From a virus (taxonomy: Duplodnaviria > Heunggongvirae > Uroviricota > Caudoviricetes): a DNA stretch of 43,170 nt. Both the position numbers and the translations under genes were made by a program. The notes under the pieces were generated by a model. It was not told the DNA's origin. It searched no databases and saw nothing but the letters and a program-made list of their open reading frames with translations. Where the stretch lies: the IMG/VR virus record IMGVR_UViG_2534682162_000010, one strand, 5' to 3'. Positions 4,109 to 7,671 of the stretch are shown one piece after another. Numbering within the stretch: position 1 is the first letter of the stretch; each line of letters opens with the position of its first letter.

Positions 4109-4405
4109 TTATACCTCTGAATCAATATCAACCTGGTGGTGAGCAATGGTTTCAACCATGTACCGGATGTGTTCTGCCATGCGATCCTGAAACTCAACAT
4201 CGTCATCAAACGCACGGGTAATGGCTTTTTTGCTGGCCCCGTGACGTTGCAAATGATCGATGCAGAGTGATTCAAACAGGTGCTGGGGCAGACCTTTTTC
4301 CATGTCGTCTGCCAGTTCTGCCTCTTTCTCTTCACGGGCGATCTGCTGGTAGTGACGCGCCCAGCTCTGAGCCTCAAGACGATCCTGAATGTAATAAGCG
4401 TTCAT
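4109..4405 (-). CDS. gam: Gam, RecBCD inhibitor (short 98-aa form only)
   Basis: [60 protein letters not shown]... matches lambda GamS; SD aggag upstream. An in-frame stop 16 codons upstream rules out the long form. Confidence 0.95.
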
Positions 4406-4480
4406 GGCTGAACTCCTGAAAATGGCTGTGAAAATATCGCCCGCGAAATGCTAGGCTGATTAGGAAAACAGGAAAGGGGA

Positions 4481-4771
4481 TTAGTGATTCAGGCCGTTAC
4501 CGCGTCCGTCGAGAAAAACTTCCACGAGCAAATCACGGGTATAAGTGCGCTCGATGCCGCGATGCAGATATAGCCGTCCGCGTAAATTAGCTGATGCAGT
4601 CCAGGTACCATCTTTGTGTTTGACCAGCATTCCTGGCATGACCGCACCTCGATTAACGGTCTGCGTTCCGTAATGTTGATGAACCATAAAAACTCCTGCC
4701 CGTAAGCTGGGCTGCTGAACATATAGAGACTTCTGCGCGTATTCAGGCGGTGGATGGCCGCCGGTTGTCAT
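4481..4771 (-). CDS. Hypothetical early-left protein, first gene downstream of PL (about 96 aa from ATG; track ORF runs to 4891 with a TTG start)
   Basis: ORF between OL/PL and gam; the ATG at 4771 is preceded by gagg and a 6-bp stem-loop. Gly/His-rich, no recognisable N, Kil or CIII similarity. Confidence 0.4.
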
Positions 4772-4959
4772 AACTAAGTCGCCTCGTTGAAGCGACTGAG
4801 GTATGAAGTGTTGAGTTGATTTCAGCTGGTCACACCGACGTTCACGCGTCCGCTTCACCCCTCGCACTCCCCGGAGCCTGCTGAAATTCAAGCTGCGGAT
4901 CTAAGCGGTCATCGCAACGGTGAATCAGGTGATTGCCGTATCGTTGTGTTGTTGCGATG

Positions 4960-5030
4960 AATTCATTTAAAACTATAGTTGTTTTATCGTCAACAACAAA
5001 AGTTGTTTTGTTGGTTGTTTTAGATATAAC
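4960..5030 (-). promoter_or_regulatory. OL/PL: leftward early promoter with repressor operators
   Basis: Palindrome at 4976-5000 (reverse complement TTTGTTGTTGACGATAAAACAACTA) closely matches the OR palindrome ATGGTTGTTGACTAAAAACAACCAT; embedded -35 TTGACG (4988-4993) with 17-nt spacer to TTAAAT (4965-4970); more ACAAC/GTTGT repeats nearby. Confidence 0.6.
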
Positions 5031-5134
5031 TGGTTGTATTTAAGATGGATTTATTTTGTGACTTGCATCGCATAGCGATAACTGAAGCGAGGTCGTGGTG
5101 GTTTTTTGAACGGTGTGTGATGAGGGGAGGGCAA

Positions 5135-5165
5135 AAGAAAACCCGGCACGGTGGCCGGGTTTAGA
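5135..5165 (-). terminator. Intrinsic terminator ending the repressor operon (tIMM-like)
   Basis: On the minus strand, a 7-bp stem (ACCCGGC / GCCGGGT, 6-nt loop) is followed by TTTCTTTTG, about 75 nt after the stop of the 147-aa gene. Confidence 0.6.
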
Positions 5166-5236
5166 TGATTGGTTAAGAGCGAGGGTAATGGGGAATGAAA
5201 AATCGCTTTACCTAATGCAAGGGTGCGAGCATTTTC

Positions 5237-5680
5237 TTAAGCACTAAAGAAAAAGTACATTGATAGCTTATAAAGTCCTGTTCCTGCAGCGATGATTGCT
5301 GGAACACCAAGCAATACCGCAAGCTTTGCGTCTGAAATCTTTCTATCGACAGCATCACTTGATGGCTTGTTTGTTAAGGATTCTTTTATAGAGTCCAGAC
5401 GTGCAAGAATAGTTATCATATTTTTGTCGATAGCTTTAACGTCTGTTTTAAGTTCATCAACGTCTCGTTTGATATGAGCAACATCGGACTCCAGTTTTGC
5501 AACTTTTTCAGGCATGTTATCACTCCCAGACCCACTGCTACCACTTGATTGTAGCATGTCCCATCTTTTTCCAGATATACCTGCTAGCTGGGAAGACGCA
5601 CTGGAGTGCAAACAAAATGATTCTGCCGCCTTTGCAATTTTATCATTTAGGTTTGGAGCTTCGTAATAATCGTGTTTCAT
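5237..5680 (-). CDS. Tail-anchored coiled-coil membrane protein (147 aa), lysogeny-operon cargo, function unknown
   Basis: ORF with a Ser/Gly-rich linker, a charged heptad-like segment (EKVAKLESDVAHIKRDVDELKTDVKAIDKNMITILARLDSIKESL) and one C-terminal hydrophobic helix (LAVLLGVPAIIAAGTGLY); AT-rich; lies between cI and OL/PL. Confidence 0.6.
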   Translation of the reverse strand: MKHDYYEAPNLNDKIAKAAESFCLHSSASSQLAGISGKRWDMLQSSGSSGSGSDNMPEKVAKLESDVAHIKRDVDELKTDVKAIDKNMITILARLDSIKESLTNKPSSDAVDRKISDAKLAVLLGVPAIIAAGTGLYKLSMYFFFSA

Positions 5681-5692
5681 AATTAATTACGA

Positions 5693-5955
5693 TTAGTTTG
5701 TTTTAGCTTTGTCATGCTGGTCGCGAATGAAGTCAGCCAATTTAAGCATCAATTCTTCGGGCATTCTAATGGTTGCAATGTTGTACTTTATGTTCTCAAC
5801 ATCGTCACTTTCATCAACAGGCCATTCAGTTACATTATGAAAAAAGAAATTGAACCTAGGCGCTGAGAGCCGTCACCAAACGAAGAGTAGCCAAACGCGT
5901 CGGCGTATGCATCGACACAGTTATTTGATTTTTTAACAAGTGTTTTATTACTCAT
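5693..5955 (-). CDS. Hypothetical small protein with an apparent -1 frame change at a T6C run (41-aa ORF 5830-5955; continuation in -1 frame to 5693 gives about 87 aa)
   Basis: ATG at 5955 with SD-like GGAAAGG; frame 0 stops after 41 codons just past tcttttttc (plus-strand A6 at 5840-5845); the -1 frame stays open for 48 more codons and ends 12 nt before the downstream gene. Could be a pseudogene, programmed frameshift or sequence error. Confidence 0.35.
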
Positions 5956-6037
5956 TTTTTGCCTTTCCCGTAATGTTATTTTTTATAAGGTATTTTCTTC
6001 AGCGTATTACCCAAAAGCCTCATCAACACGCGGCTGA

Positions 6038-6727
6038 TTATCCGTGTTTTCTGTACGTCTGCGGCATGCTCCCAATAACCTTACCGAATATGAATACCCG
6101 GTTCATCTCGTCTTTCTCGATCGGGTCCCACGGTGAGTAGCTCTTGTTATCAGAGATAACCAGTAGCTTATCCTTCATCATTTGCAGGCGCTTTACATGG
6201 GCGGTGTCGTCATACAGAAACGCATAGATACCATCACCGTCGAAAGATTTAACCGTGATATCAACGAACAGCAGATCACCTGGTTCGATCGTTCCTGACA
6301 TGCTGTCACCGCGTACGTTAATGATGCGGATATTTTCTGCCTTCCTACCATCGAACATGTGACGAGCATCGTCAAACGAGTACTCAACCGAGCGTAGAAC
6401 TTCTACAAACTCACGGTTGATGACTCCCGGCCCGGCACTCACTTCTATATCAAGAACGTCAATCTTAAAGTATTTGGAATGGCTGACAGTTGATGGTATT
6501 GGTTGCACTGTACTGTCTGACATATTTCCAACGCCAGAAGATAACCATTCTGCGCGCACACCCAAAGCGTTCGCGATCTCCACGATTTTAGTTGTTTGGT
6601 TAGCTTTCCCTGTTTCGATTTTCTGAATAGCAGCTTGGCTAACCCCGACCAAATCCCCAAGCGCCTTTTGTGTAAGGCCTCGCGCTAATCTGGCTTCTTT
6701 AAGTCTTTCTGAGAGTGTTGTTTTCAT
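6038..6727 (-). CDS. cI: CI-like prophage repressor (HTH_XRE + S24 LexA-like peptidase)
   Basis: MKTTLSERLKEARLARGLTQKALGDLVGVSQAAIQKIETG (HTH); Ala-Gly cleavage site (EVSAGPG); catalytic Ser in GDSM and Lys in VKRL. Start moved from the track ATG at 6793 (inside the operator) to the ATG at 6727. Confidence 0.88.
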   Translation of the reverse strand: MKTTLSERLKEARLARGLTQKALGDLVGVSQAAIQKIETGKANQTTKIVEIANALGVRAEWLSSGVGNMSDSTVQPIPSTVSHSKYFKIDVLDIEVSAGPGVINREFVEVLRSVEYSFDDARHMFDGRKAENIRIINVRGDSMSGTIEPGDLLFVDITVKSFDGDGIYAFLYDDTAHVKRLQMMKDKLLVISDNKSYSPWDPIEKDEMNRVFIFGKVIGSMPQTYRKHG

Positions 6728-6831
6728 AGTCCAAATGTACAACCAAGGTTTTATTCCATCAAACGAAAATGGTTGTTGACTAAAAACAACCATAGTTTTA
6801 ATCTTGATTCAAATTAACCACGGAGGTTGTT
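6728..6831. promoter_or_regulatory. OR region with divergent PRM and PR
   Basis: Perfect 25-bp palindrome ATGGTTGTTGACTAAAAACAACCAT (6769-6793) containing PR -35 TTGACT; SD ggagg before cro. On the minus strand TTGATG-17 nt-TACATT places the start at or next to the cI ATG, implying a leaderless cI mRNA as at lambda PRM. Confidence 0.6.
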
Positions 6832-7062
6832 ATGAACCCAGCTATCAAAACAGCGATCAATATCGTTGGTTCACAAAAGAAACTGGGCGCTGCCTGCGAA
6901 GTTTCACAGCAGGCCGTCTATAAGTGGCTTCACAACAAAGCAAAGGTATCCCCTGAACATGTCGGCAGCATTGTTACGGCTACTGGTGGAGTAGTGAAGG
7001 CATACCAGATTCGCCCGGATCTTCCGAAGTTGTTTCCACACACCGAAAAGAACGCAGCTTAA
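6832..7062 (+). CDS. cro: Cro-like repressor (YdaS-family HTH)
   Basis: 76-aa ORF transcribed divergently from cI directly after OR; resembles YdaS-type Cro proteins (GSQKKLGAACEVSQQAVYKW). Confidence 0.8.
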   Translation: MNPAIKTAINIVGSQKKLGAACEVSQQAVYKWLHNKAKVSPEHVGSIVTATGGVVKAYQIRPDLPKLFPHTEKNAA

Positions 7063-7131
7063 ATTTCCATTTCACGCTCTTTAACAATAAGCAATCAACT
7101 TAACAGTCAATTCAAACTAAAGGAGTCAATT

Positions 7132-7671
7132 ATGCAACCACTTACATACCAACAGACTAGCGGATTTAGCCCGACTGCGGTGATAAATCGTTCTCAAACA
7201 AAACAGGTGCCAGGCCACGAAAAAATCCGTGATGCCGTCCGCGCCTGGTCGGCTGAAGATAATCAGGATGTCGTTGCCACACTCATTGTGAATGAGTATC
7301 GGGAGCAGGGCGGCGGCACTATCGATTTCCCTGATGATGTCAGCCGTGCACGCCAGAAGCTGTTCCGCTTCCTCGATAACAAATTCGATTCTGAAAAATA
7401 CCGAAATAACGTGCGTGAACTGACCCCGGCAATTCTGGCGGTACTACCGCTGGAATATCGCGGCCACCTGGTTGAGCAGGATAGCTTCATGGCTCGGCTG
7501 GCTGAAATGGAAAAGGAACTCTGTGAGGCAAAGCAGGCGGTCATTCTCAACGCACCACGCCACCAGAAACTGAAGGAGATGAGTGAAGGCATTGTGTCGA
7601 TGTTTCGAGTGGACCCGGATCTGGCTGGTCCATTGATGGCGATGGTCACCGCCATGCTGGGGGCAATATGA
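7132..7671 (+). CDS. YdaT-family protein (CII-position regulator)
   Basis: 179 aa; motifs VNEYREQGGG and LTPAILAVLPLEYRGHL resemble Rac prophage YdaT; sits between cro and O. Confidence 0.6.
   Translation: MQPLTYQQTSGFSPTAVINRSQTKQVPGHEKIRDAVRAWSAEDNQDVVATLIVNEYREQGGGTIDFPDDVSRARQKLFRFLDNKFDSEKYRNNVRELTPAILAVLPLEYRGHLVEQDSFMARLAEMEKELCEAKQAVILNAPRHQKLKEMSEGIVSMFRVDPDLAGPLMAMVTAMLGAI

Follow-up and report, generated by a model that had tools for sequence, protein, structure and literature searches.

The window analyzed here is the entire 43,170-nucleotide stretch of IMG/VR record IMGVR_UViG_2534682162_000010, which belongs to a lambda-like Escherichia coli prophage. Two small genes, here called A (5693–5955, minus strand) and B (5237–5680, minus strand), lie between the repressor gene cI and the terminator of the immunity region. 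They very probably represent a conserved, repressor-linked accessory operon that encodes a membrane-tethered two-protein complex. An anti-phage function, which is suggested by the position of the pair and by the conflict-like modular shuffling of its architecture, is an evenly balanced proposition. The more specific proposal, that the membrane-tethered A-B complex is expressed with the repressor and excludes superinfecting phage, is put forward tentatively, somewhat short of an even chance. The pair is, therefore, presented as a well-supported candidate for experiments and not as a demonstrated new system.

The immunity region spans positions 4967–6801 and is ordered, along the leftward strand, as cI, A, B, terminator and OL. 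The upstream gene of the operon, cI (6038–6727, minus strand), encodes a repressor of the helix-turn-helix (HTH) and S24 peptidase type. Its stop lies at 6038 and its start probably at 6727, which gives a length of 690 nt that matches the XRE/S24 family repressor annotated in relatives; the Pfam domains HTH_3 and Peptidase_S24 were found on the cI homologue of the related locus L018. Next to cI lies an AT-rich cargo insert of ~880 bp (5163–6037, minus strand), delimited by the break in homology to phages in which the slot is empty. Its G+C content is 0.38–0.40 over positions 5250–6000, compared with 0.50–0.53 in the recombination and replication genes and 0.41–0.48 in the cI/cro region. Gene A starts at 5955 and its stop occupies 5695–5693; B is an intact open reading frame (ORF), and the 12-nt gap between the two (5692–5681, TCGTAATTAATT) contains no Shine-Dalgarno sequence. 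Neither a terminator nor a promoter match was found on the coding strand between cI and A. The predicted cI-A-B transcript ends at an intrinsic terminator (5129–5162, minus strand), which was identified by folding and is itself part of the conserved flank that every cargo variant shares. The stem, running from 5162 to 5139, comprises nine pairs (six of them G-C), is followed by the U-rich sequence UCUUUUG, and folds with an energy of -15.1 kcal/mol (z = -3.7 against shuffled sequences). A first-pass annotation of the window had placed two leftward genes between the cI stop and a hairpin terminator preceding OL/PL, in a segment richer in AT than its surroundings, with B starting 12 nt past A and lacking a Shine-Dalgarno sequence. 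All of these coordinates were confirmed, and the stem, the base composition and the directly read gap bear out the remainder of that description.

The interval between cI and the terminator behaves as a hotspot for variable cargo, with flanks common to the different versions. In phage PhiR34_1, whose cI is the same (97.9% identity), the slot is empty; the homology of this phage to the window breaks off at 6057 and starts again at 5162, where the terminator stem begins. At the same terminator flank, PhiR5_1 holds a HipA-like kinase pair; the two genes (L024:894-2467) are annotated as HipA toxin and HipD antitoxin, and resemble the kinase cargo known 3′ of cI in some Shiga toxin (Stx) phages. 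Lambda_4C10, IdasGreatGrand and PhiR68_2 carry yet another uncharacterised pair, of ~341–357 and 125–149 amino acids, whose genes overlap (L023:1080-2496, L025:1071-2499 and L009:1047-2502); neither a Pfam nor a PADLOC match was obtained for the pair of PhiR68_2. Lambda itself carries rexAB in this slot. The presence of the same flanks around an empty slot in one phage and around other cargos in four more agrees with the initial view of A and B as uncharacterised cargo of the cI-to-terminator interval.

Approximately 201 of 5,426 complete E. coli genomes (~3.7%) carry the A-B pair, including the O26 and O103 lineages of Shiga toxin-producing E. coli (STEC). The pair is always chromosomal and single-copy in these genomes, and both genes are annotated as intact hypotheticals. 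Two alleles were distinguished, that of the window in ~150 genomes and a second one, ~75% identical in protein, in ~50. Genomes of isolated phages almost never carry the pair; among 50,697 records, A was found in one phage.

B (147 amino acids) matches PHROG 3556, a family of unknown function, with an E-value of 1.5e-58 over profile positions 128–267 of 276. Residues 1–26 constitute a short head with a DYYEAPNL motif and a helix, residues 27–55 a disordered Ser/Gly-rich linker, and residues 55–104 a run of seven heptads with Leu, Ile, Val or Met at each of the 14 a/d positions. The sole hydrophobic segment (residues 118–136, AKLAVLLGVPAIIAAGTGL) follows a KPS hinge and leaves 11 residues to the C terminus. 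The AlphaFold2 (AF2) model consists exclusively of helices (residues 11–26, 56–103 and 108–146) with disorder at 27–55, and has a predicted local distance difference test (pLDDT) value of 60. The Ser/Gly linker, heptad coiled coil and single C-terminal transmembrane helix proposed for B in the first-pass annotation are, thus, all present. Because the protein has no signal peptide and ~117 polar residues precede the transmembrane helix, a tail-anchored topology with an N-in/C-out orientation is expected. The Pro/Gln/Thr-rich C-terminal extensions of some B homologues would fit a periplasmic tail. The ratio of nonsynonymous to synonymous substitution rates (dN/dS) is 0.15 for the tail and 0.5–0.6 for the low-complexity head and linker; by this measure, B is under purifying selection. 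Searches of B against Pfam, NCBIfam and PADLOC returned coiled-coil noise only (PADLOC E >= 0.004). Matches to PDB profiles were to generic, mostly trimeric coiled coils, including the tail-needle proteins of P22 and HK620 (E 0.02–0.25), and were rejected as compositional.

The intact form of A has 87 amino acids, is acidic (isoelectric point 4.96), and matches PHROG 4231, likewise of unknown function, with an E-value of 7e-54 over positions 1–87 of the 88 in the profile. No significant match was found in Pfam, NCBIfam, PADLOC or PDB sequence profiles. A word-indexed profile search retrieved 37 relatives, every one of them in Enterobacterales. An exhaustive hidden Markov model (HMM) search with the A profile gave 10 matches and no informative domain fusion; one long match, to a WD40 repeat protein, was dismissed as a false positive. 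The AF2 model of a homologue with 76% identity displays three long antiparallel strands and a C-terminal helix (pLDDT 82.6). The dN/dS value between alleles is 0.05–0.12, and A is likewise under purifying selection as judged by this ratio.

A comparison of nine A-linked loci from eight genera, namely E. coli (two alleles), Salmonella phage UPF_BP1, Morganella, Klebsiella, Serratia, Pectobacterium, Arsenophonus and one further genome, reveals that the two genes form a constant pair. At all nine, the gene that comes next after A, at a spacing of -14 to +12 nt, encodes a protein built like B: a short head leads through a low-complexity linker into a heptad coiled coil, and then into a single transmembrane helix that lies 0–39 residues from the C terminus. 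The tails of these proteins fall into PHROGs 3556, 6136 and 5820. No homology was detectable between B tails of different PHROGs, and the profile-profile comparison of 3556 with 5820 was negative. Nucleotide homology between the window and UPF_BP1 is restricted to A and the head and linker of B (5983–5508) and stops at the start of the coiled coil, the tail having been swapped. Conversely, PHROG 3556 tails are also found with different heads and unrelated upstream partners, namely proteins of 93 amino acids in Rahnella and 153 amino acids in Pantoea, and a 119-amino acid CxxC...CxxC protein in a metagenomic phage; A showed no homology to the Rahnella partner when the two were compared profile to profile. 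Most A-linked B proteins bear an N-terminal aromatic-acidic motif of the Y-[YSA]-[ED] type (DYYE, EYYE, DDYAD, VYAD, SYSDD and YGYSDD; the Pectobacterium head is less clear), which is absent from the B proteins with other partners. Mainly because the partner-plus-head unit and the tail shuffle independently, we infer that A binds the head of B and that the tail is a generic oligomerising anchor.

Protein P0070 of E. coli GCA_034537905.1 (L004:6001-6405) was considered as a 'Rosetta stone' fusion of A and B, and rejected. It corresponds to an in-frame deletion between identical DVENIK stretches that joins residues 1–57 of A to the coiled coil and transmembrane tail of a UPF_BP1-type B, with loss of the A helix and of the B head and linker.

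In lambdoid prophages, the pair immediately follows cI (the window, L018, L028 and the Arsenophonus locus L027, where it is upstream of N). In the P22-like prophages of E. coli, Salmonella, Serratia, Morganella and Pectobacterium, it is found directly after mnt and before the ejection-protein gene 16. In the E. coli, Salmonella and Serratia P22-like prophages, A starts within the last codons of mnt (an overlap of 8 nt) and therefore belongs to the mnt operon; the occurrence of this overlap in three genera strengthens the case for expression of the pair in the lysogen. In Klebsiella, A-B is a moron of the siphovirus tail region, close to the tape-measure gene, and Pantoea and one metagenomic phage carry B-family pairs with other upstream partners at the same kind of tail-gene site. 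HK97 carries its gp15 exclusion moron at a site of this type. The mnt-gene 16 slot of P22 holds orf59a and sieA, an inner-membrane exclusion gene (PMC10883804).

Further small genes lie between A-B and gene 16 in the P22-like prophages (L004:6496-6864, L016:5957-6262, L026:4322-5035 and L010:5754-5984). They encode signal-peptide proteins, a lipoprotein with an LLVGC lipobox and small membrane proteins, and the sieA slot looks like a cluster of envelope-directed morons. The Arsenophonus prophage that has A-B after cI also contains, 3′ of N in the PL operon, genes first for a Ser/Thr protein kinase and then for a PP2C phosphatase (L027:3828-4991).

The copy of A in the window carries a lesion. 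A run of six T residues at 5840–5845 (minus strand), in place of the T7 run of E. coli SE11 and E2865, is the sole difference in A in the alignment. The deletion results in a 41-residue product (ORF 5830–5955, with a premature TAA stop at 5832–5830) instead of the 87-residue WP_000066829.1. A 91-nt probe spanning the T-run defined 155 complete E. coli genomes that carry this stretch; none of them has the T6 state, and the best match (98.9%) differs by one gap. The deletion is specific to the window and is not a feature of the gene, and a mutation and a homopolymer sequencing error are equally possible. The earlier statement that A needs a frame change to reach about 87 amino acids was correct as to the single frame change and the length, but what it described is a defect of this copy. 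Since B lacks its own ribosome-binding site and is apparently translation-coupled to A, the premature stop, 150 nt upstream, probably lowers the synthesis of B in the window. If the deletion is real and not a sequencing error, the cassette copy in the window is probably inactive or has little activity. On the minus strand (5839–5846), the deletion changes UCU UUU UUU CAU to UCU UUU UUC AUA and gives U UUU UUC, a -1 slippery heptamer of the classical type. A -1 slip on this heptamer would recreate the exact wild-type ...SFFHNV... sequence, and the lesion could be leaky and allow some full-length A.

We propose the following arrangement for the complex. A-B would be a moron operon transcribed with the lysogeny repressor, which is cI in the window and Mnt in P22-like phages. 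B would be a tail-anchored protein of the inner membrane whose coiled coil assembles into oligomers that face the cytoplasm, probably trimers or tetramers, and whose disordered linker, of 30–110 residues, carries the aromatic-acidic N-terminal motif. A would be a small acidic oligomer, kept stoichiometric through translational coupling, that docks on the N-terminal head of B and is thereby displayed on a flexible tether just beneath the membrane. The specificity would reside in the unit of A plus head, with the coiled coil and transmembrane tail serving as a generic, exchangeable anchor. Such a complex may trap or obstruct some component of the incoming phage at the inner membrane, while the genome is entering or shortly afterwards, and so bring about superinfection exclusion.

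Several observations weigh against this proposal. The A copy at hand is frameshifted, in a state seen in none of the 155 genomes, and the A family is very narrow, with ~9 real clusters at 50% identity in the exhaustive HMM search over 1.84 billion representatives. Searches of Pfam, PHROGs, PADLOC and NCBIfam found no similarity to known defence or exclusion proteins, and neither A nor B has an enzymatic or otherwise recognisable effector domain. Known injection blockers such as SieA, HK97 gp15 and T4 Imm either cross the membrane several times or are exposed to the periplasm, so that a cytoplasmic tether is not an obvious block to injection. Finally, the genomic position is only suggestive, as the same slots also house non-defence morons.

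The last point leads to the alternative that survives best, although it is rather unlikely, that the pair serves lysogenic conversion or housekeeping. In this case, the complex would be a membrane-tethered adaptor acting on host physiology (envelope stress, division, FtsH/Clp proteolysis, or ribosome tethering of the kind known for tail-anchored ElaB/YqjD-type proteins) or a stabiliser of lysogeny. Non-defence morons occur both in the repressor-operon and in the tail-region slots, the genes beside the pair in the P22-type slot specify uncharacterised lipoproteins and secreted proteins, and host stress proteins also have the tail-anchored coiled-coil architecture. Defence-database matches are absent (PADLOC), and the pair is missing from the supplements of two E. 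coli defence screens. However, it recurs in three slots that are best known for exclusion genes (rexAB, sieA and the HK97 gp15-like site), heads, partners and tails are exchanged as modules in the way typical of conflict systems, and Pfam, at E-values up to 1, gave no match to host tail-anchored families.

An abortive-infection or toxin-antitoxin-like mechanism is unlikely. It supposes that the oligomerised transmembrane helices of B, with their small-residue motif GVPAIIAAGTG, permeabilise or depolarise the membrane in the manner of holins or XhlA, and that A restrains the B head until a phage cue is received. The combination of a soluble and a membrane protein in the rexAB slot recalls the sensor-effector logic of RexA/RexB, and a small acidic protein encoded upstream of, and tightly coupled to, a membrane protein resembles an antitoxin-toxin gene order. 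B also gives weak matches to the XhlA-type 'hemolysin' PHROGs 1193 (E 1.4e-4) and 937 (E 1.2e-3), and its Klebsiella homologue to Pfam XhlA (PF10779; 14.6 bits, E 0.037). The match of B itself to the Pfam family, at 12.1 bits (E 0.23), is well below the gathering threshold of 34.7 bits, and coiled-coil bias accounts for matches of this kind. Moreover, the effector should be the conserved part of such a system, yet the tails are swapped among non-homologous sequences. A broken A beside an intact B in the window, together with the deletion fusion of P0070, is hard to reconcile with A as an essential antidote, unless the loss of coupling silences B or the deletion is a sequencing error. We favour the tethered trap, acting by exclusion, over the abortive membrane effector, because the tail, the would-be effector, is freely exchanged and A can be lost while B remains intact. 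A function in the lytic cycle (for example in the timing of lysis, or in helping DNA to enter or replicate, with transcription from PRE or through late read-through), to which the weak XhlA-like similarity and matches to spanin and holin PHROGs at E >= 0.04 only could point, is very improbable, as the pair is never in a lysis cassette and always has the orientation and operon of the lysogeny repressor at the loci examined, is dispensable in that close relatives with the same cI lack it, and is rare in sequenced virulent or isolated phages.

If the tethered A-B complex proves protective, it would be a new exclusion or defence system with no enzymatic domain, in which a sensor or trap is tethered to a tail-anchored coiled coil, and it would take its place among the few exclusion and defence genes known from repressor operons. 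It would, in addition, link three classical moron slots, those of lambda rexAB, P22 sieA and the tail genes, via one mobile module, and could affect the phage susceptibility of E. coli, superinfection by Stx phages and the outcome of phage therapy. The swapping of head and partner against tail constitutes a natural experiment on the recombination of specificity and anchoring modules. A broader and more doubtful extension is that A-B and its architectural relatives form an unrecognised class of prophage immunity, in which an exchangeable tail-anchored coiled-coil scaffold would display a variable specificity protein and intercept incoming phage proteins or DNA ends. This class would be found in Enterobacterales prophages at all three kinds of slot (rexAB, sieA and tail moron), and its partner/head units would be shuffled independently of its tails.

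A 19-nt operator-like sequence at 4967–4985 has an inverted copy at 6783–6801 (95% complementary), and the two bracket the immunity region as OL and OR. The OL repeats (4967–5009, no strand assigned) comprise the direct repeat D2 and the inverted repeats I1, I3 and I5 with copies in OR, and are accompanied by a PL-like promoter on the minus strand (TTGACG, 17 nt, TTAAAT) that was read directly from the sequence. The OR repeats in the cI-cro interval (6761–6801, no strand assigned) contain I1, I3 and I5 and a palindrome at 6769–6793. No N-like gene was found between PL/OL and kil (4690–4960; L001:4866-5414), a stretch of ~450–550 nt that has no annotated coding sequence in the prophage or its relatives and gave nothing in Rfam at E < 0.5; an Rfam scan of 4400–6100 likewise returned no match. 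This raises the question of how early antitermination operates when no N-like gene is present, for example by an HK022-like RNA-based mechanism. The positions of cro and cII (6832–7671, plus strand) are occupied by YdaS-like and YdaT-like genes instead of lambda-type cro and cII; relatives label the YdaT-like gene 'toxin YdaT domain-containing'. Within or beside the side-tail-fibre region, close to the right end of the prophage, Rfam detected a full-length IS009 match (RF02111; 42932–43130, plus strand; 227.9 bits, E 5.8e-56).

The first-pass claim that neither product belongs to a known family holds for the profile searches: Pfam, NCBIfam and PADLOC were negative for RexA/RexB, SieB, kinase and BstA-type proteins, and the PHROG matches were to families of unknown function only. 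In particular, RexA/RexB was not among the Pfam matches of A or B at E-values up to 1, PADLOC gave nothing significant, and Pfam families of the SieB or T4 Imm type were not found for either protein at the same limit. PADLOC-DB 2.0 gave no match for six partner or A-linked B-type proteins from related loci. As to prior description, the accessions of A and B are cited in no paper found and are absent from the supplements of DefensePredictor and Vassallo et al.; Brenes & Laub 2025, reportedly a screen of E. coli prophage defences, was not covered, so that an earlier characterisation is not fully excluded.

In its setting, the pair recalls lambda RexA/RexB, which likewise comprises two genes directly 3′ of cI and before the immunity terminator, carried on the PRM transcript, encodes a soluble and an inner-membrane protein, and is dispensable cargo of a variable slot. 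A-B lies between cI and the immunity terminator, with co-transcription predicted from the sequence alone. The proteins themselves differ, as RexB is polytopic with four helices whereas B has one C-terminal helix and a coiled coil, and RexA has ~279 amino acids compared with 87 in A. A similar parallel applies to SieA of P22, since A-B occupies the same mnt-gene 16 slot of P22-like prophages in the orientation of mnt and includes a predicted inner-membrane protein. SieA is a single protein of 162–164 amino acids with three predicted transmembrane segments (the definition allows three or four) and the motif FxRYPxEAxxFNK (PMC10883804). By contrast, B has one transmembrane segment, lacks this motif and needs a partner gene, and thus falls outside the definition of SieA. 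XhlA proteins resemble B in having a coiled coil followed by a C-terminal transmembrane helix, but they sit in lysis cassettes and, unlike B, have no long disordered linker, N-terminal head or upstream partner.

The predicted fold of A, with three strands and a helix, is weakly similar to that of the COMM domain. As an analogy, the COMM domains in Commander are bound by peptides of coiled-coil proteins. COMM domains form obligate interlocked dimers or rings (PMC13392464), and A has no Pfam COMM match and lacks the N-terminal helical domain of COMMD proteins. A parallel in organisation outside Enterobacterales is provided by mycobacteriophage defences such as gp30/gp31 of Butters and gp30/31 of Sbash, which are prophage-expressed, repressor-adjacent pairs, each combining a soluble with a membrane protein, for which an interaction has been proposed (PMC7542560). 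These pairs differ from A-B in host phylum and membrane topology, and a sequence relationship is not expected. A-B is best described as repressor-operon prophage cargo from two orphan families with a probable role in exclusion or defence, in the same setting as RexAB and SieA.

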